Of a DNA stretch of 64,000 nt, positions 1-16,172 are shown piece by piece. Positions within the stretch are counted from its first letter, which is position 1. The number at the start of each line of letters is the position of its first letter. The notes under the pieces are model-generated. The model saw nothing but the letters and a program-made list of their open reading frames with translations, searched no databases and had not been told where the DNA came from. The stretch comes from an uncultured candidate division WWE3 bacterium (GTDB taxonomy: Bacteria; Patescibacteriota; WWE3; UBA101185; UBA10185). The stretch is taken from positions 315,111-379,110 of the forward strand of contig CALKWN010000065.1 in the NCBI GenBank assembly GCA_938004185.1, written 5' to 3'. Both the position numbers and the translations under genes were made by a program.

Positions 1-12
1 AAAAATAGTCTG

Positions 13-59
13 AGCAAAGAAAACGGGGCAATGTAGTTTATAAACTTTTACATTACCCC
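13..59 (-). terminator. Intrinsic terminator after the 81-aa gene: GGGGTAATGTA/TACATTGCCCC stem followed by a U-rich tract on the minus strand
   Basis: Inverted repeat at 25-35 / 49-59 with one mismatch. The minus-strand RNA continues with GUUUUCUUUGCU. Confidence 0.5.
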
Positions 60-66
60 TTTAGTA

Positions 67-312
67 CTACTCCTTCTCAACCTTAGGGTGCTTATTCAAG
101 AGAATTTCACGGGACACCTCGTTAATGTCTCTGTGACGGTCTCTGTAGCTCCCACAAAAACAGCTTTTTGTACAATATGGGCCCGGAACGTGAGGTAAAA
201 CCCTTTCACTTTCCGCCCGGGAAAGACGTACAGCACTATCGGTAGGCTTACATCTTCCCTTACCGGCTCTTGCCTGGGCTACTATGGCGTCAACAATTTC
301 TTTTACGTCCAT
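67..312 (-). CDS. Small Cys-rich hypothetical protein (81 aa)
   Basis: ORF preceded by GGAGGTG 5 nt upstream of the ATG. Has four Cys (C21, C47, C51, C53), a possible metal-binding arrangement. No family recognised. Confidence 0.5.
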   Translation of the reverse strand: MDVKEIVDAIVAQARAGKGRCKPTDSAVRLSRAESERVLPHVPGPYCTKSCFCGSYRDRHRDINEVSREILLNKHPKVEKE

Positions 313-496
313 CGCACACCTCCGATCAATCGAATCGTTTCTGATTACAACCGGGTTTACTAACCCTTTTAACAGACCTCCGCGGAAAAATTTGTACCTT
401 CAATTGCTCTCCTTTTTTAAGTTTAAAAAAAACGACCCCCTGGAAGAAATCTTCGTTTAGTTGGCCGTTACAATATTTAATTGAGCAAATCGTAGC

Positions 497-529
497 AAAA
501 AAAAGTTCCGGAGTCAAACGCTCCGGAAC
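497..529 (-). terminator. Intrinsic terminator downstream of rplS
   Basis: Minus-strand RNA: GUUCCGGAGCGUUUGACUCCGGAAC followed by U8. Perfect 9-bp stem. Confidence 0.65.
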
Positions 530-559
530 AAATAAGTCCGTGTTAAATAAAACTAAAAA

Positions 560-1045
560 TTACTTTTTAATCTCTTTAACTCTCATAGCTTCTCTACCTA
601 CTTTATCTCTAAGATAGTAAAGTTTAGCTCTTCTGACATTTCCTCTTTTCATTACTTTTATTTTTTCTATGTTAGGTGAGTGCAAAGGAAAAATTCTTTC
701 AACCCCTACCTGATCGGCGCCTATTCTTCTAACAGTAAATGTTTTGGATACATCAGACCCTCTGAAAGATATCACAATACCCTCAAAAGGCTGTATTCTC
801 ATTTTGTCGCCTTCGATTATTTTGTAAAAAACTCTTACGGTGTCCCCGGCTCTGAATTCAGGAAGTTTTTCCTCTGTCTGATCGGTAGAATCGTCTTCAA
901 CACTCTCTTCGTCGACAGTAGTTTCTTCCGTTACTTCAACGTTTTCTTGTTCGGCAATCTCTTCTGCGGGTGTCTCGTCAGCAACTACAGGAGTATCCTG
1001 CTGGTCGGTGTCTTGTTTTGTTGTATCTTTAATATTATCGGTCAT
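560..1045 (-). CDS. rplS: 50S ribosomal protein L19 with an acidic N-terminal extension
   Basis: C-terminal 110 aa carry L19 signatures ([30 protein letters not shown]). The N-terminal ~50 aa are D/E/T-rich. Confidence 0.9.
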
Positions 1046-1093
1046 AGACTGTGATAGGATAGCAAATTAATACCGAGATTTCAATAATTTCAA

Positions 1094-3205
1094 TTATTTC
1101 TTTCTCGAACCCACTTTTGCAGGTTTTCCGACGGAAATATCCAAACCGCCCGAGCCTGAAATATTTATTGTAAGGGAGTCTCCCTCAGAGATTTCACCAG
1201 CAATAATCTTGCTGGAAACGACGTTCTCAACCTCTTTTTGTATAAGTCTTCTTAAAGGTCTTGCTCCGTATTCATCGCTGTACCCGTTTTCTACCAAGTA
1301 ATCAACTGCCTTAGGTGTTATTTCCAAATTTATCTGCTGTTCTTTTAACATTTTTTTGGTTTTCTCAAGCATACGTAAAGTAATCTCTTTAATATCTTCT
1401 CTGCCCAAGCTTGTAAAAACAACAATCTCATCAATTCTATTCAAAAATTCCGGTTTAAAAGAGTCTTTCAAAATACCGAATATTCTTTTGTCTGCGGACC
1501 TTTCCGCCTCATCGTGACTCTTTTTCATATCTTCGTTAAAACCTATATCTTTTCTTCGTAAAAGTTCCGATCCGACATTTGATGTGAGTATTAAAATTGT
1601 GTTTTTAAAGTCTACCGTTCTACCTTTGCTATCCGTTAACCTTCCGTCTTCCATAATCTGAAGGAGTGTATTAAAAGTATCGGGATGGGCTTTTTCTATC
1701 TCATCCAACAAAATAACTGAAAAAGGCTTTCTTCTTACAACATCGGTTAACTGACCGCCCTGGTCATAACCGATATATCCGGGAGGGGCACCTATCATTT
1801 TGCTTACAGAGTGCTTCTCCATGTACTCACTCATATCGAGCCTTATAATCATATCCTCGTCACCGTATAAGGCTTCGGCAAGAGTCTTAGCTAATTCGGT
1901 TTTACCTACACCTGTAGGACCTAAAAATAAGAAAGAGCCAATCGGCCTTTTTGGATCTTTTAATCCTGCTCTTGCTCTCCTTATAGCTTCCGATAAAACG
2001 CTTATAGCTTTGTCCTGCCCCACTACTCTATTTTTAATTGTTTCTTCAAGTTTTAATAATCGTTCTCGTTCAACAACATTCAGTTTCTCAAGAGGAATGC
2101 CTGTAGCCCTCGAGACCACTTTTATAACCGCGTCTTCGGTAACATCCGGAATTTCTTCGAGTTTTGTTTTAGTCCAAATTTCCACCAATTCGGATTTTAT
2201 CTTTTCGAGCTCTTCGAGTTTCTTTTTAACTTCATTTTTCTCTTCATCCGAAATTTTATTTTTTCTTCCCTGCGATTTTAAGTTTGAAATTTCTTCTTCT
2301 ACTTTTTTCAAATTTTCGGGCTCTTTAACCTGTGAGAGTCTGACCATAGCACAAGCTTCATCTATAAGATCTATTGCCTTATCCGGCAAAAACCTGTCGG
2401 AAATATATCTGTCGCTCATTTTTACAGCCGATATTATTGCGTCATCGGATATTTTTACATTGTGGTGTGACTCGTAGCGTTCACGTAATCCGCGTAAAAT
2501 CTCAACTGTATCTTCAGTAGTCGGCTCATTTACCATAATAGGTTGGAATCTTCTCTCGAGTGCGGCGTCCTTTTCAACATGCTTTCTGTATTCGTCTATC
2601 GTAGTTGCACCTACCATCTGTAACTCACCTCTTGCAAGTGCGGGCTTTAGAATATTTGCCGCATCCATCGAACCTTCAGCACTTCCGGCTCCTATTACCG
2701 TATGAAGCTCATCGACGAACATTATTATCTGACCGTTGGCCGAAATTACCTCCGAAATAATATCTTTTAGCCTTCCTTCAAACATCCCCCTGTGAGATGT
2801 ACCGGCAATAATTGAAGCCAAATCGAGCATAAATACTCTTTTTCCGCGCAGAGGCTCCGGAACCTGCCCGTTTACAATTTTTTGGGCAAGACCCTCAACT
2901 ATGGCGGTCTTACCTACTCCCGGGTCGCCAATTAACACCGGGTTATTTTTTGTTCTTCTGGAAAGGATATGAATAACACGCTCAATTTCGTTCTTTCTAC
3001 CGATTACGGGATCGAGTTTGCCTTCCCTTGCGAGCTGAGTTAGATCACGACCGTATTTATCCAGTTTAGAAGCCGACTGATTTGTTTCTTTTATAACTTC
3101 GGCGTAACAAACCTCACAAAGGGCCATATAAACCTGTTTGCCCTCAATAATCTGATTTATGGGATATTTTGCGGGGCGTTGTCCGCATCTGTGGCAGAGT
3201 ACCAT
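1094..3205 (-). CDS. ClpE/ClpC-type double-AAA+ Clp ATPase with an N-terminal C4 zinc ribbon
   Basis: Two Walker A sites ([16 protein letters not shown]), a coiled-coil middle region, and an N-terminal CxxC...CxxC like ClpE. No ClpC N-repeat domain. Confidence 0.85.
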
Positions 3206-3254
3206 GAAAAGTATATTAGCACTCGATGTTTATGAGTGCAAGAGTTATTTGCGA

Positions 3255-5102
3255 TTAGTGTTCCCAAACATCGCCTACAAAAGGATCGCTTACGACTTTT
3301 ACTTTTTTAATAAACAATTCGGCTGCTCTTACCATTTCTTCAGACTGCACTTTTGCCCAATATTCCGCCTGATCCTCACGAACTTCGGAAACTATCTCAT
3401 CGTGTACGGTCAGCGTAAGCGAACCGTCTATTCCCTCTTTAACTCTCCTATCGTTCAAAAATATAAGTGCGTATTTTATTGCGTCAGCATTAGTGCCCTG
3501 GATGGGATGATTTTTAGCTTCCCTTTCAATTCGCGATGTTTTCTTTCTAAAATCGGGGTCGTTTTTTTCAGGTTTTTCGTACCATCTTTTTCTTCCGAGG
3601 GGGGTTGTACTAAAACCGTCTCTTACAGCTTTTTTGGCTGTCTTATCAAGGTATTCCTTAACACTGGGGTAACTTGCAAAATATCTGTTCACATAATCCT
3701 CGCCTTGTTCTTTAGAAACAGGCTTTCCCGATTCATTTTCAATGCGGCCGGCCAGACCTATCGCACCCATTCCGTACATTAAACCGAACCCTATCGGTTT
3801 TGCAATTTGCCTTAAATCCGGATATTTCTTTTTGAAATCATCACTATAAGGCACGTTAAACATAAGTGATGCGGTATATGAGTGAATATCTAAACCGTCA
3901 TTTAATGCTTTTATCATTTTAGCGTCCCCGGAAAGCTCGGCTAAAATTCTCATTTCAAAGGCCGAATAATCTGCAGTTACTAATTTGTACCCAGGTTCGG
4001 GATTAAAACAGGTTCTAAACGGAGCTTCTTCAGAATTTCTCGGAATTTGCTGAAGGTTAGGGTTATTACAGGAAAATCTTCCTGTAGCAGTGCCCAACTG
4101 ATTAAATTCGGGATGAAGTCTTTTTGTAACCGGATTTATTTTTGACAATAAACTGTCACCAAAAGCCGATAATAGTTTTTCATAACCTCTGTAGTTTCTT
4201 AAAATCTTTACTACCGGATGAGGATTGGTGGCCAAAATAGCGTCACCTGTTGAAGGTAAATTCAGATTCAGCCTTACATTGAAAAGTTCCATCAACTGCT
4301 GCTGACTGTTCATGTTAATCGTGTCGGCGTGGTTCCCGAACAAATCTATCATGTTATGTTGATACAAAGGTCTTATTGCTTCCTGAAACTCCTTTGCCAA
4401 TGCATTTCTTTTTTCCGAAAGTTTTACCATAATATCGCGCCATTTTTGTTCATCGATGTAAATTCCTTTGAGCTCCATTTCTCCGACCGCTCGGGTAGCT
4501 GAAAATTCGAGCTTGGCAACGTTTAAAAGATTTTCTTTTTTTATCTTTACAAGCTGTTCTTCGAATATCGGAAATAAAATTAATGTATCCAGGGCCGAGT
4601 ACTTTAGCTGTTCTACATTTATTTTTGTTTTAGTCGTTACACCTTCAAACGTCTCCCTAACATCCTTTTTCAAATCCATTCCGGTATATTTTTTTGTAAG
4701 GTCTTTCAAGGAATAGTATCCGCGTCCCATACCTGCGTTTAAAATAACTTCAGCCAGCATCGTATCGTACATGTTTGTAGGAGCTGCGCCCACATGTACT
4801 TTCAAATGCCTGTAGTCAAATTTTCCGTTGTGAAAAATTTTTAGTATTTTAGGATTCTCTAAGTACTCTTTAAACCTGGCGATATTTTTTAAATCTAAGG
4901 CTCGGGCATCAAAAATGTAACTTTTATCTTCGACTCCTATTTGAACCAATAAAAGAGTTGAAGTGTAAGGATCCAATCCCGTACCTTCGATATCTACCCC
5001 GACAACTTTGGCTTTTTCTAAAAAATCTAAAGCCTCGTTAAGCTTATCTTTTTCTTTTATGTATTCGTAAGAAGGATTCTCCGGATCAAATTTAAGTTCC
5101 AT
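3255..5102 (-). CDS. polA: DNA polymerase I, Klenow-like (3'-5' exo + polymerase, no 5'-3' exo domain)
   Basis: N-terminal DEDD exo motif VGVDIEGTGLD. Family A polymerase motifs RQIAKPIGFGLMYG and HDEIV. Confidence 0.85.
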   Translation of the reverse strand: MELKFDPENPSYEYIKEKDKLNEALDFLEKAKVVGVDIEGTGLDPYTSTLLLVQIGVEDKSYIFDARALDLKNIARFKEYLENPKILKIFHNGKFDYRHLKVHVGAAPTNMYDTMLAEVILNAGMGRGYYSLKDLTKKYTGMDLKKDVRETFEGVTTKTKINVEQLKYSALDTLILFPIFEEQLVKIKKENLLNVAKLEFSATRAVGEMELKGIYIDEQKWRDIMVKLSEKRNALAKEFQEAIRPLYQHNMIDLFGNHADTINMNSQQQLMELFNVRLNLNLPSTGDAILATNPHPVVKILRNYRGYEKLLSAFGDSLLSKINPVTKRLHPEFNQLGTATGRFSCNNPNLQQIPRNSEEAPFRTCFNPEPGYKLVTADYSAFEMRILAELSGDAKMIKALNDGLDIHSYTASLMFNVPYSDDFKKKYPDLRQIAKPIGFGLMYGMGAIGLAGRIENESGKPVSKEQGEDYVNRYFASYPSVKEYLDKTAKKAVRDGFSTTPLGRKRWYEKPEKNDPDFRKKTSRIEREAKNHPIQGTNADAIKYALIFLNDRRVKEGIDGSLTLTVHDEIVSEVREDQAEYWAKVQSEEMVRAAELFIKKVKVVSDPFVGDVWEH

Positions 5103-5216
5103 TTCAAGTATGATATTACCCGATTGAGCCTTAAGATGAAATACCCGAACTTGACTCGAACAAACTATTTACCTAGAATTCGGTACAAACAAAAAACACT
5201 AACAGAGAGGAGAGTC

Positions 5217-5528
5217 ATGAGAGAGCTAAGTCAGGAAAACTTACGAAAAGTTGAGGCAAGTTTTAGAGGAAAATACAATAGAGAGGTCTGGTTGATACCC
5301 AAGTATGAATACGGAACCGGACGCAACATGTGGCGTGTGCTTGAAGATATGGGTTTTGAAGTCAGAAATTACCTGAAAGTCGGCATACTTTTAATTGTTA
5401 CTCCGCCCAGAAGCTGGAAAAGGCAGGTAATCGGGCACTGGACGTACATCAAAAACAGTCGCGGGAAAATTAAGCTGTTTGCATACTACAGAGACATACA
5501 AGATTGCTATCTGAAACTACCGAAATAG
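5217..5528 (+). CDS. Hypothetical protein (~103 aa), orphan plus-strand gene
   Basis: GAGAGGAGAG RBS 3 nt upstream of the ATG at 5217 (the ORF track starts earlier at 5124). Followed by a hairpin terminator. No family recognised. Confidence 0.45.
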   Translation: MRELSQENLRKVEASFRGKYNREVWLIPKYEYGTGRNMWRVLEDMGFEVRNYLKVGILLIVTPPRSWKRQVIGHWTYIKNSRGKIKLFAYYRDIQDCYLKLPK

Positions 5529-5555
5529 CATTGTTTCCGGATATCAGCAAAACAA

Positions 5556-5598
5556 AGCCGTAATTAGAACCAACAATTCTTTTTACGGCTATTTTTTT
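5556..5598. terminator. Bidirectional hairpin terminator between convergent genes (5217..5528 and gatB)
   Basis: AGCCGUAA...UUACGGCU stem flanked by T7 on the plus strand and a U-rich run on the minus strand. The loop is long (19 nt). Confidence 0.45.
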
Positions 5599-6898
5599 AA
5601 ACAGACTCTTTTATGATTCGGAGAGTTGTAGCGGGATCAGCTTTACCCTTCATTTCCCTCATAACACCGCCCAGCAAAAACTGCAGTGCACTTTCTTTTC
5701 CGTTTTTAAAATCCTGGACGGCAGCAGGGTTATTTTGTAAGACGGTTTCTACTGCTTTTCTAATCTCATCGCTATTTGAAACTTTTTCGCCTTCATTTTT
5801 TACCCTCAACAAAATTTCGGATGCTGAAAGCTCCGACAAATCTTTGCGGTTAATTAAAATGTTAGCTGCTTTTGTAGACTCCAGCCCACCTGAAGTTAAA
5901 TCATGAAGTTTTTGAACCGCTTCTCTTCCCATAACTTCAACGAGGATTCGGCTTTGCTCTTTGCTTAAACCGTCTTTTTCCAGTTGAATACGCAGTGCAG
6001 AGGGCAATTCACCAACCAATAAGCCCAATTCCTCGATATACTTATCATCAAAAACCATGGGCGGTATATCGGGTTCCGGAAAATATCTGTAATCAGAAGC
6101 TTCTTCTTTGGTTCTTTGAGGAACAGTAATATTTTTAACATCGTTGTACCCTCTATTTTCTTGTTTCGGTGTTGAACCTGATTCCAAAATTTCGGTTTGT
6201 CTGGTTATTTCCGCGCGTACCGCTTTTTCCATAAACTTAAATGAGTTAATATTTTTGACTTCGACTTTGTAAGAAGGCAGTTCACCCTTTTTCTCCATCT
6301 CGGGCGTCCTTAAAGAAATATTTGCCTCGAGCCTCATCTGACCTTTTTCCATATCCCCCTCGCTTATTCCTAAATACCTGCAAATTACCTGAAGCTTTTT
6401 GCAGTAATCAACCGCGTCCTCGATAGAAGAAAAACACGGTCTTGTAACTATTTCTATCAAAGGCAATCCTGATTTGTTAAAGTCGACTAAAGTTTTTCCG
6501 TTTTGGTGAAATGACTTTGCAACATCTTCTTCGAGATGGACTCGCTCAATATCGGCCGTGTTTCCGCTTTCCAGAATTAAAGAACCGTTTTCGCATAAAG
6601 GCTGTTTGTACTGACTAATTTGGTAACCTTTCGGGAGATCGGGGTAAAAATAATGCTTTCTGTCGAATCTTGAATCTTTATTTAAAGTGCATCCTAAGGC
6701 TAGGCCAAGTAACTGTGCCTTTTTCACGCCTTCCGGATTGGGAACAGGCAAAGCACCGGGCAATCCTAAACATGTGGGGCACGTATGTGTATTAGGCTCA
6801 GCTTTCCATATATCCGCACTGCAACCGCAGAACATTTTCAGTTCTGTTTTAGGCTGAATATGAAATTCCATTCCCAGTACTAATTTAAATTCGCTCAT
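5597..6898 (-). CDS. gatB: Asp/Glu-tRNA(Asn/Gln) amidotransferase subunit B
   Basis: Typical GatB N-terminus (LGMEFHIQ...) and a C-terminal GatB/YqeY domain. Part of the gat operon. Confidence 0.92.
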   Translation of the reverse strand: MSEFKLVLGMEFHIQPKTELKMFCGCSADIWKAEPNTHTCPTCLGLPGALPVPNPEGVKKAQLLGLALGCTLNKDSRFDRKHYFYPDLPKGYQISQYKQPLCENGSLILESGNTADIERVHLEEDVAKSFHQNGKTLVDFNKSGLPLIEIVTRPCFSSIEDAVDYCKKLQVICRYLGISEGDMEKGQMRLEANISLRTPEMEKKGELPSYKVEVKNINSFKFMEKAVRAEITRQTEILESGSTPKQENRGYNDVKNITVPQRTKEEASDYRYFPEPDIPPMVFDDKYIEELGLLVGELPSALRIQLEKDGLSKEQSRILVEVMGREAVQKLHDLTSGGLESTKAANILINRKDLSELSASEILLRVKNEGEKVSNSDEIRKAVETVLQNNPAAVQDFKNGKESALQFLLGGVMREMKGKADPATTLRIIKESV

Positions 6899-7290
6899 AC
6901 GCGCACTCCTAATTTATATAAACCTTCTTTTAGATTTGCTACTGCTTCATTAATTACAAAGTAGGGCGGCTCGAATCCGGCCTCATGAACTAAGCTATTT
7001 CTTAATTTGTGAGCATCCCAAATTCTTCCGTAAGTCACTCTGTCAAACTTTTCTTTTGAGTTTTTTAATCTTTCACCCATTGTTTCTCCGGGAACAACAT
7101 CTTTTAAAGCGGCGTCCAAAGTTTTGTCGGCAGTAATTAATGCCTGTTTTAACTGAGCCGGACTTTTCTGTTTTAATAAGATAGCTATATTGTCCCAGTC
7201 GGAAGTTATTTTTCTCACAGTGTCCTGAGATACTGTGCCGTAAGAATATGAGGCTGTATTTTTTCCGAATATTGTTTCAAAAAATCCCAT
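6895..7290 (-). CDS. Hypothetical protein with an Rx4H (HEPN-like) motif, embedded between gatA and gatB
   Basis: ORF tightly packed: 2 nt after the gatA stop and a 4-nt overlap with the gatB start. Contains AHKLRNSLVHE, i.e. RNxxxH. Confidence 0.5.
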   Translation of the reverse strand: MGFFETIFGKNTASYSYGTVSQDTVRKITSDWDNIAILLKQKSPAQLKQALITADKTLDAALKDVVPGETMGERLKNSKEKFDRVTYGRIWDAHKLRNSLVHEAGFEPPYFVINEAVANLKEGLYKLGVRV

Positions 7291-7292
7291 AT

Positions 7293-8732
7293 CTATTCCT
7301 TTATAAGTGTGGGCTTCTCGTTATGAAAACCCGTCTCTCTTTGATAAGAGCACAAAGCTCCGAAAATTTTTGACTCCTCATTCATTCTTGCCATTATCTG
7401 CACACCTACCGGAAGTCCGTTATAAAAACCGCAGGGGACGCTAACTCCCGGAACTCCTGCAATACAGCTGGGTTCGTTTAGTACATCCATCATTTCACCG
7501 AACATTGCAGAATTAGAACTTTCTCCGACATCTAAAGCCACGCAAGGCATTGATGGTGCTACAAGAAGATCCACTTTTTCAAAAGCCTTATCAAAACTGT
7601 CTTTTATTAAAGTTCTTACTTTTTGAGCTTTCGAATAGTAAGCGTCGTAGTATCCCGAGCTTAAAGTATACGTACCCAGCATTATTCTTTTTTTAGCTTC
7701 GAAGCCGAAAGAATTTCGGTCATTTCCGTATCTTATTCCGTCAAGACGCGCCAAATTAGAAGATACCTCGGATCTTTGTAAAATTGTATAGACCGCGATC
7801 GAGTATTTAGGGCTTAACATATCAACATCGATTATCTCGGCGCCCAAAGATTTGAATACTTCTATCGCTTCATCAACTTTTTTTCTTGTTCCCTCTTCAA
7901 GATCCATTTCAAAGTAGGACACCGGCCTTCCGATTTTAACTCCTTTCAAATCGTATTTACCTGCCTCCGACAAATAATCTTCAACAGCTGCGGGAGAGGA
8001 AGTTGCATCAAGAGGATCTTTCCCGGCCATAACCGAAAGAACTAACGCTCCGTCTTCGGCAGTTTTTGTAAGAGGTCCCGGGCTGTCCGTAGAAGAAGCC
8101 ATTGCAATAATTCCGTACCTGCTAACTCTTCCGTAAGACGGTTTGACTCCGGTTACTCCGCACCAAGAAGCAGGACCCCTAGTACTACCCCCGGTCTCAC
8201 TTCCTGTCGCAAAAAGGCACATGTGTGCTGAAACAGCTGCTGCCGAACCTCCGGATGAACCTCCCGGAACTTTTGTTAAATCCCAAGGATTGAAAGTTGT
8301 TCCATAATCGGAAGTTTCGGTTGAAGAACCATGAGCCAGCGCGTCGAGATTTGTTTTTCCGAGCAACACAGCACCGGCGTCGTTAAGTTTTTGTATCGCA
8401 GTAGCGTCAAAGGGAGGCTCGTATCCTTCAAGAATTTTTGAAGCCGCTGTTGTTTCAATATTTTTCGTTGAATAGTTATCTTTTGCTGCGTAGGGAATGC
8501 CTAACAAAGGTTTATCTTCAAAAGCTTTTTCTCCTTTTTCGGAAATTAAATTATCAGCTTCCTTTGCTCTTTCCATAGCAATATCTTTGGTCACTCTTAA
8601 AAAGGCTTTAATTTTCGGGTCAAATTTCTCGATCTGATCCAAACATGCAACGGTAAGGTCGGTTGATGAGATATCTCCTTTTTTTAGGTCCTTTAAGGCC
8701 TCTACAACTGTAAGTTCGTTCAAATTATTCAC
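7293..8732 (-). CDS. gatA: Glutamyl-tRNA(Gln) amidotransferase subunit A (amidase signature)
   Basis: GGSSGGSAAAV amidase signature. Matches GatA in length and context. Confidence 0.92.
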   Translation of the reverse strand: MNNLNELTVVEALKDLKKGDISSTDLTVACLDQIEKFDPKIKAFLRVTKDIAMERAKEADNLISEKGEKAFEDKPLLGIPYAAKDNYSTKNIETTAASKILEGYEPPFDATAIQKLNDAGAVLLGKTNLDALAHGSSTETSDYGTTFNPWDLTKVPGGSSGGSAAAVSAHMCLFATGSETGGSTRGPASWCGVTGVKPSYGRVSRYGIIAMASSTDSPGPLTKTAEDGALVLSVMAGKDPLDATSSPAAVEDYLSEAGKYDLKGVKIGRPVSYFEMDLEEGTRKKVDEAIEVFKSLGAEIIDVDMLSPKYSIAVYTILQRSEVSSNLARLDGIRYGNDRNSFGFEAKKRIMLGTYTLSSGYYDAYYSKAQKVRTLIKDSFDKAFEKVDLLVAPSMPCVALDVGESSNSAMFGEMMDVLNEPSCIAGVPGVSVPCGFYNGLPVGVQIMARMNEESKIFGALCSYQRETGFHNEKPTLIKE

Positions 8733-9015
8733 GATCGAAAACTCCTTTCGTGACCACCAAATCTTTCTCTTTATTTTTTACGTTCTTCAGCGCCTCTTCT
8801 TTGGAGAGAGTAACAGTCCGAGAACCGTCCTGAAAAACATTTTTTAATCCTGTTACCTGAAAGGTTTCCTCAACTTTAGAAGTATCTAGCTCGTCTAAAA
8901 TTTTCACGTAATCCAGGGTATCGCTAAGTAGTTTTGAAAACTTCCCCTCATTGCCGGAAATATCTAGTTTAGACATTTCAGCTATTTTTTTTACCTCATC
9001 TATAGATATGCTCAT
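8725..9015 (-). CDS. gatC: Amidotransferase subunit C
   Basis: 96 aa with the GatC-like opening (MSISIDEVKKIAEMSKLDIS...). Overlaps the gatA start. Confidence 0.85.
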   Translation of the reverse strand: MSISIDEVKKIAEMSKLDISGNEGKFSKLLSDTLDYVKILDELDTSKVEETFQVTGLKNVFQDGSRTVTLSKEEALKNVKNKEKDLVVTKGVFDRE

Positions 9016-9106
9016 ACAAAGGTATTAAAGCAAATTTTTGTTCATATTTAAAGCAAAAGAAATGCCCGTCAAAAAATTTTTAGTTTTTAAGACGGGCGTG
9101 GATAAA

Positions 9107-9664
9107 CTAGATGACTAGTTCTTCCTGCTCAAAATCTTGCGTAATATCTTCCATGTCCTCATAAAATAGTTCCGCAATTTGCCTACCCAAAGGACCTGAA
9201 AAATAGAATCCCATGGTTTCCAAACTGCTTTTAGGAAAAACAACGTCAACTCTGAGCAAGGGAATTTTTATCACACCGAATGGTTTATAGTACAACATAC
9301 AAGTACTGCCTTTACCTGAATCGAATTTTATTTGGGACTCATGCGTTACTACATGCCCCATATAAATAAGATTCGGCTCGACCTGGGATACAATAACATG
9401 CAGCGAGCATACAGCTCTATTCAACTCGCAACCTCGATGAACAACCGCACGGGTGTCAGGAGATTTGTCGTACATCAGCATGCTATCCAGCTCTTCGAAG
9501 CAAATAGGCGGTATTAAACCGAAATCGATGTAACTTTTTGATCTTTCCCTAGTTATCTCGGATAAAGTTGGGGTGACATAGTCCTTTTGCTTTCTGAATA
9601 TTGTAAACAAAAGGCATGCACCAAGAACCACCATCACGGTCCAAAAACACTGATCTTCCGTCAT
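9107..9664 (-). CDS. Hypothetical membrane-anchored protein (185 aa, one N-terminal TM)
   Basis: Hydrophobic N-terminus then a soluble domain. Followed by a possible hairpin/U-rich terminator at 9064-9097. No family recognised. Confidence 0.5.
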   Translation of the reverse strand: MTEDQCFWTVMVVLGACLLFTIFRKQKDYVTPTLSEITRERSKSYIDFGLIPPICFEELDSMLMYDKSPDTRAVVHRGCELNRAVCSLHVIVSQVEPNLIYMGHVVTHESQIKFDSGKGSTCMLYYKPFGVIKIPLLRVDVVFPKSSLETMGFYFSGPLGRQIAELFYEDMEDITQDFEQEELVI

Positions 9665-9753
9665 CTCTCCTCCTTAATATATGATTTTTATTAAAATCCG
9701 CGATAACGCATTATATTTTTGAGCGGGAAATTAGTCAACAAATCCTGATTTGT

Positions 9754-10653
9754 CTACATCTGTTGAAGACGTCTTATTCTTTCTTCTATAGGAGGGTGGG
9801 TTGAAAACCAACCCGAAACTTTTTTTTCAAAATTTTTAACGGGGCTTACGATAAATAAATGTGCGGTAGCGCCGTTGGCAGCTTCCAAAATATCGCTGTC
9901 TGATGCAAGTTTAGCTAAAGCATCCGCAAGTCCCTTCGGGTGTCTTGTTATGGATGCGGCTGTAGCATCAGCTAAGTATTCACGATTTCTGCTGATCGCG
10001 AGCTTAATCAATGTAGCAATAATAGGAGAAAGTATTAAAAATAATATTCCGATCAAAAATATTAACCCGCTTCCCGAGCCTGAGCTGGAATTCCTTCTTC
10101 TTGATCCGCCGTATAAAGCACCTCTTGTAAACCAATCCGAAATCAAAACTATTGTCCCGACCAGAATACTTACTATAGACATCAACCTTATATCGTAATT
10201 TCCTATATGAGACATTTCGTGGGCAATAACTCCCTCAAGCTCTCTTTTTTCAAGGCGCTGGAGTATGCCGGTTGTGAAACACACAACTGAATGGTTAGGA
10301 TCTCTTCCTGTAGCGAAAGCGTTCATTGAAGAATCTTGGATTATGTAAATTCGGGGTTTCGGTATTCCCGACGCTATGCTCATGTTTTCTACGAGTTTGT
10401 GTAAATCGGGGGCGTCCTCAAATTTTACTTCTCTGGCGTTAGAAATACTTAAAACGATTTTGTCAGAATTGTAATATGAAAAAACTCCCGACAACCCCGA
10501 AAAAATTAAAGCAAAACCCATAAGGGAAAATCCGCTGCCTTCAAAATAATACTCACCCAAAAACCATCCAATTGCTGAAATTACGGCAATAAAAAGCACA
10601 ATAATTACGGCTGTATCTCTTTTATTTTTACTTATCTGCTGGTACATGTTCAT
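9754..10653 (-). CDS. htpX: Zinc metalloprotease HtpX (M48 family)
   Basis: HEMSH zinc motif, multiple TM segments, C-terminal PPIEERIRRL. Start set at the MNMYQQ ATG, which abuts the upstream NUDIX stop. Confidence 0.8.
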   Translation of the reverse strand: MNMYQQISKNKRDTAVIIVLFIAVISAIGWFLGEYYFEGSGFSLMGFALIFSGLSGVFSYYNSDKIVLSISNAREVKFEDAPDLHKLVENMSIASGIPKPRIYIIQDSSMNAFATGRDPNHSVVCFTTGILQRLEKRELEGVIAHEMSHIGNYDIRLMSIVSILVGTIVLISDWFTRGALYGGSRRRNSSSGSGSGLIFLIGILFLILSPIIATLIKLAISRNREYLADATAASITRHPKGLADALAKLASDSDILEAANGATAHLFIVSPVKNFEKKVSGWFSTHPPIEERIRRLQQM

Positions 10654-11117
10654 ACACGATCTTTTTCTTCTTCCTTCCAGCCGAAACTGGAATACTTTAC
10701 ACCTTTTAGCATTTCGTCCATTCCGAATCGAACAATAGGAATAGTGTTTTCTGGGAGAGATTCTATATTGAACCATCCAATCTCATCACATTTTTCAGGC
10801 TCGGTGTTGTGGGGGGAACCTTCCCATTTCCTAACTTTGTAGTAAATAAAAACCCTATCCATATCTGAAATCCGAGAAGAAAGCTGCAAAAGATTACCGA
10901 ATTCTAAATCGTCCTCTAAGATCTTAACTCCAGCCTCTTCTGCTACTTCACGGCACAGAGCCTGCGTAAAAGATTCACCCTGCTCAGCATGGCCTGACAC
11001 AAAACCATACCAGCCGTCACGCCAACCAGTGTTTTTTCTTTTTTGAAGTAAAATCTTACCGTCCTTTTCAAAATATGCCAACACAGCAATTTTGAGCTGA
11101 ACTACGTGCTTATCCAT
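10650..11117 (-). CDS. NUDIX hydrolase
   Basis: Nudix box GHAEQGESFTQALCREVAEEAGV. Confidence 0.8.
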   Translation of the reverse strand: MDKHVVQLKIAVLAYFEKDGKILLQKRKNTGWRDGWYGFVSGHAEQGESFTQALCREVAEEAGVKILEDDLEFGNLLQLSSRISDMDRVFIYYKVRKWEGSPHNTEPEKCDEIGWFNIESLPENTIPIVRFGMDEMLKGVKYSSFGWKEEEKDRV

Positions 11118-13954: not shown

Positions 13955-14031
13955 GGGGTCGTAGCTCAGTCGGTTAGAGCGCCGCACTGTCACTGCGGAG
14001 GCCGCGGGTTCGAGTCCCGTCGATCCCGCCA
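13955..14031 (+). tRNA. tRNA-Asp (anticodon GTC), CCA encoded
   Basis: Hand-folded cloverleaf: acceptor GGGGTCG/CGATCCC, anticodon loop CTGTCAC, T-loop TTCGAGT, discriminator G. Confidence 0.9.
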
Positions 14032-14627: not shown

Positions 14628-14702
14628 GCGGGTGTAGCTTAGTGGTAAAGCGTCTGCTTCCCAAGCAGAAGACCGCGGGTTCGAGCCCCGTCACCCGCTC
14701 CA
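14628..14702 (+). tRNA. tRNA-Gly (anticodon CCC), CCA encoded
   Basis: Hand-folded cloverleaf: acceptor GCGGGTG/CACCCGC, anticodon loop TTCCCAA, discriminator U. TATAAT at 14611-14616 upstream. Confidence 0.9.
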
Positions 14703-14852
14703 GAAAGGTGGTGTGAGCACCGCAAGGTGCTTAGCAGCTTTCTGGGATGGCGGGGCGAGAATGCCGGAAGGAGCATTAGCGACTGAGGCGGGGTCTCGAG
14801 CTTTACAGATTGTTTGAGCGTTAGCGAAATACAATGTGTTAAGACTTGTGAC

Positions 14853-14873
14853 CGAGCCCCGTCACCCGCTCCA
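14853..14873 (+). repeat. 21-bp exact direct repeat of the tRNA-Gly 3' end (copy of 14682..14702), att-site-like
   Basis: CGAGCCCCGTCACCCGCTCCA occurs at 14682-14702 (T-arm/acceptor/CCA of tRNA-Gly) and again at 14853-14873. The 150-bp spacer contains a GAGCACC-GCAA-GGUGCUU GNRA hairpin. Confidence 0.7.
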
Positions 14874-14983
14874 AATAGACTAACAGAATCCTTTATCCTA
14901 ACAACATGCCTGAGCTGACGACAGTGACTAACTAAAGAGGATACAACCCATCGTGCACTGACCACAAACTTTGCTTAATTTGT

Positions 14984-15385
14984 TTAACACATATTATTTT
15001 TTGCTGACTTTTGTAAATAATTTATGTAATCTTCCTTTTTCTCATGCTCCATCGAATTTGCCTCGGGGTGCTTCAAGTGAGTAATTTCGTGCTCTATAGT
15101 ACCCACCAAACCGCCTGGTGCCCTATGAATATCTATGGGGCATATAGAAATACAGCTATCCTCGGGGTGATACATACCCCAAGGGCCGAAAGATCTTATG
15201 TAACATTCAACGTCTCCTTTAATTTCTGGAAACCCTTCTGCTACTATTTCTAAAACCTTTTTTTTGTTCTCCTCAGTGGGTTCGAAATAAACAATGTTAC
15301 GCTGTGCACAGAAATCTTTTAACCCTGGGAGAAAATTACTCATAAGGTTACTATTAACTTTTTCTGAGTATATTATTTTTACCAT
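14984..15385 (-). CDS. Small HExxH zinc-metallopeptidase-like protein (133 aa)
   Basis: HEITHLKH motif preceded by a conserved-looking stretch (WGMYHPEDSC...). No SD at the annotated start, so the start is uncertain. Confidence 0.5.
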   Translation of the reverse strand: MVKIIYSEKVNSNLMSNFLPGLKDFCAQRNIVYFEPTEENKKKVLEIVAEGFPEIKGDVECYIRSFGPWGMYHPEDSCISICPIDIHRAPGGLVGTIEHEITHLKHPEANSMEHEKKEDYINYLQKSAKNNMC

Positions 15386-15417
15386 TCTTTAATTTTACTA
15401 TGTACAGAAAAACTAAA

Positions 15418-15462
15418 GAATGGGAGGGAAAGAAGTTTTTTTAAACTTTTTCCCTCCGATGT
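15418..15462 (-). other. Long A/U-rich hairpin with GGAGGG/CCCUCC ends in the 5' region of the HExxH gene (terminator or attenuator candidate)
   Basis: Minus-strand RNA: GGAGGGAAAAAGUUU-AAAAAAA-CUUCUUUCCCUCC followed by a U-rich stretch. It lies 175 nt downstream of the EamA stop and 33 nt upstream of the HExxH ATG. Confidence 0.3.
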
Positions 15463-15634
15463 ACTACTTGATGTCCGATCGAGTCTATTAATCTCGGCAA
15501 TTGCAGTAGCAGTTACAAATGAATTTAATTTAAAGATCTGGGTGTTGAGTTAATGGTATCCGTGTTATTTTTCATTTCTTGGCAGATAGTAATGTAAAAC
15601 AAACTTCTCCAAGCTACCCCATGCCTGGAATTAG

Positions 15635-16051
15635 CTAAAAAGCAATCAAAATAGCACCGGCAGTCATCAAAACACTTCCCAAAACTACGTGCAATGTAAT
15701 CTTTTCACTTAAAAACAATGCTCCGAACAAAACCGCTAAAACAAGACTTAATTTATCTATAGGAACAACCTTTGAAACACTTCCAAGCTGTAAAGCTCTA
15801 AAATAGAAAAGCCAAGAAATACCTGTGGTTAATCCGGATAAAATTAAAAATATTAAAGTATGTTTAGAAACAGTAGAAAGATTGCGAAAAGTACCCTGAA
15901 AAAACACTATTCCCCAAGCAAATAAAGTTATAACGATAGTTCTAATTGCTGTAGCCAGATTGGAGTTGATGTTTGTAACACCGATTTTTGCCAAAATTGC
16001 GGTTATAGCAGCAAATAGTGCGGATAAAAGAGCAAATATAAACCACGTCAT
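15635..16051 (-). CDS. EamA/DMT-superfamily small membrane transporter-like protein (4 TM, 138 aa)
   Basis: Four hydrophobic helices. C-terminal half resembles EamA-domain proteins. Confidence 0.65.
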   Translation of the reverse strand: MTWFIFALLSALFAAITAILAKIGVTNINSNLATAIRTIVITLFAWGIVFFQGTFRNLSTVSKHTLIFLILSGLTTGISWLFYFRALQLGSVSKVVPIDKLSLVLAVLFGALFLSEKITLHVVLGSVLMTAGAILIAF

Positions 16052-16096: not shown

Positions 16097-16172
16097 GCCG
16101 GTATAGCTCAGCTGGCAGAGCAGTCCCTTCGTAAGGGAAAGATCACAGGTTCGAATCCTGTTACCGGCTCCA
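16097..16172 (+). tRNA. tRNA-Thr (anticodon CGT), CCA encoded
   Basis: Hand-folded cloverleaf: acceptor GCCGGTA/TACCGGC, anticodon loop TTCGTAA, T-loop TTCGAAT. Extended -10 TGgTAGAAT at 16078-16086 upstream. Confidence 0.9.

Follow-up and report, generated by a model that had tools for sequence, protein, structure and literature searches.

A structured RNA module ending in a copy of the upstream tRNA tail behind tRNA-Gly(CCC) of a WWE3 bacterium

Behind the tRNA-Gly(CCC) gene of a WWE3 bacterium, in a 64-kb stretch of DNA that was analysed as a whole (the window), lies a non-coding module of about 171 nt (14703..14873, plus strand), recognised by its fold, its G+C content and its homologues, and composed of a hairpin (P0), a three-way junction and a copy of the tRNA tail. 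It is best read as a member of a family not described before, whose units follow tRNA genes in CPR bacteria; in the searchable full-text literature, neither its sequence motifs nor structured RNAs trailing tRNAs in CPR could be traced, apart from coincidental primer matches and papers on other subjects. The explanation preferred here, to which a probability of roughly one half is given, is that of a small non-autonomous, T-loop-anchored module which is transcribed behind the tRNA, as its trailer, and kept for the sake of its fold. The preliminary description of this locus had taken the repeated tRNA tail for the att footprint of an integrase. The geometry behind that view, a repeat running from the T-loop to the CCA, stands; the view itself does not fit the spacer, which is a conserved, covarying RNA, nor the failure to find an integrase.

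The tRNA-Gly(CCC) gene, with an encoded CCA, occupies 14628..14702 on the plus strand (ARAGORN; Rfam tRNA model, 74.5 bits). Its last 21 nt, from T-loop C56 to A76 (CGAGCCCCGTCACCCGCTCCA), constitute copy 1 (14682-14702), and a pattern search of the 64-kb window placed this 21-mer at exactly two sites, the second being copy 2 at 14853..14873 on the same strand (tRNA positions 56-76), an exact 21/21 match 150 nt downstream. A third copy is absent from the window even when up to 3 mismatches are allowed. The repeat is thus confirmed as first described, and the features reported around it were recovered as well: the sequence preceding copy 2 (..CTTGTGAC) bears no likeness to a tRNA, the hairpin GAGCACC-GCAA-GGTGCTT lies between the copies at 14715-14732, ARAGORN finds tRNA-Asp (13955-14031) and tRNA-Thr (16097-16172) on the plus strand, and the neighbouring genes encode a LysM protein (PF01476), an EamA protein (PF00892) and a 133-aa HExxH protein, the last with no Pfam match. 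The notion of a chance repeat or an assembly artefact is already refuted and has practically no probability left, since such a repeat arose in 0/100 shuffles (chance expectation 0) and the family is seen again in dozens of unrelated contigs. Moreover, three independent assemblies of the organism and one NCBI MAG agree in every letter of the locus, and the identity across the independent assemblies excludes an artefact of assembly.

Taken from CCA to CCA, the 171-nt module folds on the plus strand with a minimum free energy (MFE) of -78.2 kcal/mol (z = -6.3 against shuffles), and more weakly on the minus strand (-56.8 kcal/mol, z = -3.6). The 150-nt spacer carries no gene and has a G+C content of 61%, compared with about 38% in the flanks and the genome, and the open reading frames (ORFs) over it are minus-strand frames alone, which cut across both the tRNA gene and the conserved fold. 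All parts of the module lie on the plus strand. The P0 hairpin (14703..14742, from the fold) follows directly after the CCA of the tRNA, with a base GAAAG...CUUUC and an inner stem GAGCACC-GCAA-GGUGCUU; in about half of the other units P0 carries a U-run and is terminator-like, and this U-run is absent at the window unit. The 5' strand of P1 (14743..14756) contains the core GGGGC (14752-14756), which was assigned by RNAalifold and a covariance model and pairs with 14856-14860, that is, with tRNA positions 59-63 inside copy 2. In the MFE and duplex folds, the segment 14743-14751 lengthens P1 into the acceptor-3' part of copy 2.

In the remainder of the three-way junction, the joiner J1/2 (GAGAAU, 14757..14762), scored as invariant in 18/18 units of alignment A1, leads to the P2 hairpin (14763..14789), which has a base GCC...GGC, two G-A-rich internal loops and compensatory changes; the invariant J2/3 (GG, 14790..14791, in A1) is followed by P3 (14792..14853), here in a long variant of 62 nt with a base GGUC(U)...(U)GACC and pairs that also show compensatory changes. 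The last pair of P3 already employs C14853, the first base of copy 2 and the equivalent of tRNA C56, after which J3/1 (GA, 14854..14855, from alignment and structure) corresponds to tRNA G57 and A58. The 3' strand of P1 (14856-14860) is succeeded by a 3' tail (14861-14873, tRNA positions 64-76) that comprises the end of the T-stem, the acceptor 3' strand, the discriminator U and the CCA, both segments lying within copy 2. When the precursor 14628-14880 is folded as one RNA, the tRNA 5' acceptor strand is predicted to pair with copy 2 and the 3' strand of the tRNA's own T-arm with the anti-T-arm strand, a swap of partners that arises because both repeat copies are identical. In many units, duplex folds carry P1 on into the acceptor 3' strand; the fold of the Gly units lacks pairs 1:72 and 2:71 and thus has a 5-6-nt overhang. 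Acceptor-stem mimicry was considered as a general rule and dropped, as only some units show it.

Strong evidence that the module is a structured RNA comes from the compensatory changes backing its helices, which exceed both shuffled and slid controls. The consensus was obtained from A1, an alignment of 18 units; each unit shows P0 right behind the CCA and then the three-way junction, and in P1 five or more nucleotides lying immediately 5' of GAGAAU pair with positions 59-63 of the copy. The pair statistics were calculated on 22 units. In these, 95.3% of the cells pair (75% after shuffling), 17/25 pairs have changed on both sides, and the covariation score is 0.53, in comparison with 0.15 for shuffled and 0.06-0.12 for slid alignments; the observed covariation values were reached in 0/500 shuffles. 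Compensatory changes affect 4/4 upper pairs of P2 and 9/13 pairs of P3 in the 22 units, and 12/14 pairs of P0 in an alignment of 14 units. A G.U pair in P3, kept in 20/22 units, shows that the tRNA-sense strand is the strand that folds. The P1 strand covaries with the T-loop variant of each tRNA. In the window the copy starts with CGAGC and its pairing strand is GGGGC (P1 GGGGC/GCCCC), in L022 the corresponding sequences are CGAGU and GGGAC (P1 GGGAC/GUCCC), and in L012 they are CGAAU and GGGAU (P1 GGGAU/AUCCC), so that T-loop positions 59-60, copy 2 and the pairing strand vary together in three Gly lineages. The covariance model, R1, gives the window unit (14741-14873) 90 bits and an E-value of about 4e-24, which is rough given the shortened calibration, and detects no further unit in the window.

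Searched at E <= 10 over the window, L054 and L029, Rfam 15 gave no family for the module, the tRNAs alone being matched; the families covered include tRNA-like RNAs, tmRNA, Y RNA, self-cleaving ribozymes, group I/II introns and HEARO. Several more specific proposals were set aside. A likeness of GGAAGGAGCA to the tmRNA tag region or to SRP RNA has no Rfam support, and the motif is the covarying P2 stem. Known ribozymes, a purine-riboswitch-like junction and group I/II introns were dismissed, as they gave no Rfam match and are at odds with the strands of the junction. A pseudoknot between GGCGGGG and the acceptor 3' strand of copy 2 was rejected because GGCGGGG is invariant while the acceptor sequences differ among the 11 tRNAs that carry a unit.

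An intron in the T-loop, in which copy 1 and everything up to ...GUGAC would be removed and U55 joined to C56 of copy 2, could draw on the predicted precursor fold, where copy 2 is the partner of the tRNA 5' acceptor strand. Group I introns are abundant in the tRNA genes of Patescibacteria; they split the gene in the anticodon loop, at 35/36, and are recognised by group I models (PMC13011429). Like the module, they are structured RNA insertions tied to tRNA genes in the same phylum. However, copy 1 already completes the tRNA, the module stands behind it, and no intron model fits, with no group I/II signal in Rfam even at E <= 10. Furthermore, the putative intron would end in C, not G, and several units combine an intact tRNA with a decayed copy 2. 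Splicing at the T-loop is accordingly given hardly any weight.

The module is not confined to this locus. JGI metagenomes were scanned with one exact 19-nt core pattern, GAGAATGCCG-N18-GAGGCGGGG, which returned 40 loci, 23 of them real units and 17 chance matches in high-GC coding DNA. Together with loci known earlier, the scan places units behind 11 tRNA isoacceptors, namely Gly(CCC), Gln(CTG), Lys(CTT), Lys(TTT), Pro(GGG), Ile(GAT), Arg(TCG), Arg(GCG), Ala(TGC), Tyr(GTA) and Trp(CCA). The 3' end of a unit is the last 20-21 nt of the tRNA upstream, and in every unit with an upstream tRNA (about 20) the left edge of the repeat lies at C56. The right edge is normally the CCA, the tRNA-Trp unit of L029 having a repeat of about 58 nt that extends through the following hairpin. 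Tail copies are perfect in 12 of the roughly 20 units and differ by 2-4 mismatches in the rest, mostly in the tail and with the P1 part kept; decay, including loss of the CCA, is seen in L032, L046 and L057, and the Gly orthologues still match their tRNA throughout the 13-nt tail. Exact protein look-up assigned unit-bearing contigs to several WWE3 genomes, including RAAC2_WWE3_1, and to one Candidatus Moranbacteria MAG, so the family is found in two CPR lineages or more. The RAAC2 core of WWE3 (L057) is closer to the Moranbacteria core (L054) than to other WWE3 cores; on this comparison, the similarity of units does not track the relatedness of hosts.

Some of the loci show arrangements of their own. 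L029 (1155-2070, minus strand) holds three units within 1 kb, one behind tRNA-Trp and two in tandem behind tRNA-Tyr, of which the first has a divergent core and the second a tail that matches no neighbouring tRNA. At the edge of contig L039 (1-190), another structured stretch, closed by a GGCGGAC/GUCCGCC helix, lies upstream of the family unit and ends in the same tRNA-Pro-like tail (..GUCCGCCCACCCCGACCA); it may represent a second family with the same architecture. In L047 (2286-2400) and L036 (3344-3450), both on the minus strand, a TATAAT promoter-like motif and an internally deleted tRNA remnant (GGGGAACGTAATGTTATCCCACCA in L047) precede the unit, an arrangement in which the unit has outlived its tRNA. 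A genome scan also brought up actinobacterial matches (L019, L021 and L023) that are ordinary displaced tRNA fragments or chance and were placed outside the family. L019 (4535-4558) and L023 (6404-6427) contain lone tRNA-Gly 3' portions, from the anticodon loop on, with no tRNA nearby and no core, and in contrast to the family they look like ordinary displaced att fragments.

With the family in hand, the conventional scar of an integrase island can be weighed. It would make the locus a deleted remnant or a cis-mobilizable mini-element, and the spacer functionless attP-arm DNA. According to the passages of PMC1635311 that cite Williams 2002 for the rule of T-loop-type tRNA integration by tyrosine integrases, a repeat from T-loop to CCA is what such att sites look like, and partial-tRNA repeats also occur in tycheposon islands (bioRxiv 10.1101/2020.12.28.424599). 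Empty sites are known at this locus, which is a hot spot, and L019 and L023 seem to supply the ordinary form of such scars. As with tyrosine-integrase islands and prophages, the tRNA gene is left intact with a 3' repeat from the T-loop on, and tandem arrays at one tRNA, empty sites and an adjacent variable hot spot are found. What separates the module from them is the roughly 150 nt between the repeats, with neither integrase nor cargo inside, and the nature of the insert, a conserved folded RNA whose closing helix is built on the repeat itself. Near-identical cores, moreover, occur at many tRNAs, whereas integrases are tRNA-specific.

The searches for a responsible enzyme or parent point in the same direction. 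No Phage_integrase match was obtained in the roughly 40 ORFs of the window or beside other units, and neither a transposase nor a reverse transcriptase is among those ORFs or the neighbours of the units; TnpA/TnpB, a DEDD recombinase and Cas1 were not seen in about 84 kb of this genome (window, L069 and L072). A free, circular, phage-borne or plasmid-borne parent was not found in IMG/VR, phages or plasmids, nor was an autonomous relative sharing the end sequences, as a cis-mobilizable element (CIME) would have. Scans of IMG/VR with the 21-mer and two core patterns gave 0 matches or chance matches that R1 rejected, and BLAST against phages and plasmids one chance match in a Streptomyces Ku gene. 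The two forms in which the idea had been put fare no better: neither a heavily deleted island remnant nor the far edge of an accessory stretch is supported, the spacer and copy 2 forming a conserved and covarying structure. There are no accessory genes between the copies, and the 133-aa protein and the EamA gene lie outside the pair, downstream of copy 2. RNA-type covariation, G.U pairs included, extends over 11 tRNAs, the copies are always 123-171 nt apart and never at an island-sized distance, no third copy exists in the window, and the same module stands behind at least 10 other tRNAs. The att-scar reading is therefore largely refuted and retains a very low probability; it fails because the spacer and copy 2 are one selected RNA fold common to 11 tRNAs.

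The history of the locus can be followed among relatives. Homologues of the LysM protein and of the 133-aa protein carry names of candidate division WWE3, a CPR lineage. The gene order conserved in WWE3 relatives is PolX, a small ORF, tRNA-Asp, LysM, tRNA-Gly, a variable segment, tRNA-Thr, a 71-aa ORF and an NTP-transferase. The LysM gene served as the synteny anchor; the 133-aa gene was discarded for this purpose, as its homologues stand in unrelated contexts. The distance from tRNA-Gly to tRNA-Thr is 27 nt in L068 (710-886), 254 nt in L066 (3624-4027) and 5.2 kb in L022 (358-5689), and other relatives hold different small genes in each case. The island-like, variable character ascribed to this region is thereby borne out, and the interval is an insertion hot spot whose cargo is not bracketed by tRNA-tail repeats. 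Between tRNA-Gly(CCC) and tRNA-Thr(CGT), the cargo of relatives includes unrelated DUF5680, HTH, HIT and UDP-glucose dehydrogenase genes.

Several relatives whose LysM proteins are 65-70% identical have a homologous spacer and tRNA-tail copy right behind tRNA-Gly. There is one unit in L014, L022 and L040, two tandem units are found in L012, and L017, L066, L067 and L068 have none, which supplies the empty sites that had been called for. Conservation of repeat and spacer in related genomes had been named as a sign of an ancestral feature rather than an insertion, and the homologous units at the same locus in related WWE3 species come close to that. Between L012 and L013, where the flanks are 99.9% identical, the difference is exactly one 143-bp unit; gain and loss of units can thus be seen among relatives. 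The same pair (L012 553-3460, L013 1-2899) is 99.9% identical at the tRNA-Gly locus and 85.6% over the adjacent PolX-LemA segment, which suggests recent recombination between WWE3 strains. A separate observation concerns the 133-aa HExxH gene, which in the window (14874-15634) follows right behind copy 2 together with a downstream hairpin GGGAGGGAAA...TTTCCCTCC (15422-15457). In L007 (4750-5510), from an 86%-identical relative, the gene lies behind tRNA-Thr, beside a radical-SAM gene, and copy 2 is 4 nt from the EamA stop codon; gene and hairpin look like a small cassette relocating between tRNA 3' ends.

A second unit is present in the same genome. L069, which is 100% identical to window positions 1-11045, bears it behind tRNA-Lys(TTT) (15397-15645, minus strand), 4.35-4.6 kb beyond window position 1; the right flank of the window (L072) is free of tRNAs and of units. 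This Lys unit has UUGAAU as J1/2 and GUC/GAC at the base of P2, as against GAGAAU and GCC/GGC in the window unit. Over J1/2 and P2, identity is 0.91 between the window Gly unit and that of L022, and 0.83 between the Lys units of L069 and L045. Over P3, the window Gly unit and the L069 Lys unit, which share a genome, reach 0.94, and all other pairs 0.61-0.71. Since J1/2 and P2 group by tRNA and P3 by genome, the comparison indicates descent at each tRNA locus plus exchange between sister units of one genome.

The fixed edge at C56, combined with a verbatim tail of the upstream tRNA, argues for a T-loop-anchored mechanism of insertion or duplication, while covariation, orthologous persistence and the joint change of tRNA, copy and pairing strand argue for selection on the RNA. 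It is the two together that favour a non-autonomous trailer module. In this proposal, the second 21-mer would be the built-in 3' end of the module 14703-14873, which would enter a tRNA gene at T-loop 55/56 as a small non-autonomous insertion or duplication unit. Copy 1 would keep the tRNA gene intact, and the other tail copy would join the module's own fold. The RNA would probably be transcribed from the tRNA promoter, as a trailer of the tRNA. Once inserted, the module would be inherited vertically under selection for its fold, would exchange segments with sister units of the same genome, and could be lost cleanly by recombination between the two copies; an excised circle would join ...GTGAC to CGAGCCCC...CCA-P0. 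The identical 13-nt tail in the Gly orthologues speaks against a mere relic. Against the proposal stand the lack of a parental element in IMG/VR, phages and plasmids and the finding that none of the roughly 40 ORFs of the window, and no gene beside the units, encodes a recombinase, a transposase or a reverse transcriptase. In addition, the grouping of J1/2 and P2 by tRNA type and the compensation in the helices would fit a resident gene as well as a mobile element.

The main rival is indeed such a gene, a resident functional small RNA co-transcribed with the tRNA, and it is a serious possibility, if a less probable one. Its extended P1 and NCCA overhang would mimic an acceptor/T-stem minihelix, tRNA-processing enzymes and tRNA-like 3'-end protection would set the ends of the RNA, and the function, such as the binding of a protein or an effect on the tRNA next to it, would reside in the three-way junction. 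Copy 2 and the tRNA itself might be alternative partners of the anti-T-arm strand. The predicted co-transcript fold, which moves the tRNA 5' acceptor strand onto copy 2, speaks for such a gene. Invariant junction nucleotides and compensation in every helix over a long divergence are what a resident gene would show, as are orthologous units that several WWE3 species have behind one and the same tRNA, the co-change of T-loop 59-60, copy 2 and pairing strand in the three Gly lineages, and the perfectly kept tail of the Gly orthologues. L036 and L047, in which the promoter upstream of the unit is kept despite a decayed tRNA, point the same way. Yet a tRNA-like end alone requires neither the exact tail of the adjacent tRNA, repeated at 11 tRNAs, nor a fixed C56 boundary, and these two features indicate a duplication or insertion mechanism. 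The decayed tails of L032, L046 and L057, CCA loss included, the incomplete acceptor mimic of the Gly units, with 1:72 and 2:71 missing and the 5-6-nt overhang, and the patchy presence among close relatives also fit a resident gene poorly.

A further and rather unlikely reading makes the module an RNA-programmed mobile element, in which the anti-T-arm strand would select T-loops by pairing and the junction would catalyse or direct strand exchange. The invariant junction nucleotides would sit exactly at the 55/56 breakpoint, and the reaction might be a ribozyme-type transesterification onto the tRNA 3' portion or the guidance of a host recombinase. Such an element would explain how one core gained the exact tails of 11 tRNAs without an encoded protein. 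The IS110 bridge RNA, the omega RNA of TnpB/IscB and the internal guide sequence of group I introns combine a scaffold with target-specific guide segments, and by analogy the module has a conserved scaffold and short target-varying flanks, with an anti-T-arm strand complementary to the T-arm. Unlike these RNAs, it has no recombinase or nuclease gene, its putative guide is paired in cis, and there is no sequence or Rfam similarity.

The preferred non-autonomous module also has partial counterparts among other known systems. CIMEs and MITE-like elements are short, non-coding and flanked by att-like or target repeats, and are presumably mobilised in trans. The module is likewise short, non-coding and bracketed by repeats, and it departs from them in its lack of a detectable parent and of terminal inverted repeats, and in a conservation pattern that follows RNA structure. 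Casposons insert at tRNA 3' ends with a target duplication of about 14-15 bp, possess terminal inverted repeats and code for Cas1 as well as a polymerase; the duplicated target, a tRNA gene 3' end, is shared with the module, which has no duplication of that size, no terminal inverted repeats, no Cas1 and no polymerase. The tRNA-like domain of tmRNA, bacterial Y RNA (YrlA) and viral tRNA-like 3' ends possess a fixed tRNA-like sequence of their own, with a T-loop. They have in common with the module a helix of T-stem and acceptor 3' strand ending in NCCA; in the module, however, the tail is verbatim from the upstream tRNA, U54 and U55 are missing and no Rfam match is found.

CPR bacteria have highly reduced genomes in which few mobile elements are recognised. 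To our knowledge, the combination of an att-like tRNA 3'-end duplication with a three-way-junction RNA that folds the duplicate into itself was not known before. Automated island finders would take these units for att scars; with R1 or a similar covariance model, they could be annotated. The module offers a testable system for three subjects, namely tRNA genes as insertion hot spots without integrases, RNA pairing as a programme for the choice of tRNA targets, and the role of tRNA trailers in cells with minimal RNA-processing machinery. If the interpretation given here is true, CPR bacteria carry, attached to their tRNA genes, a widespread class of structured RNA that had not been listed before.
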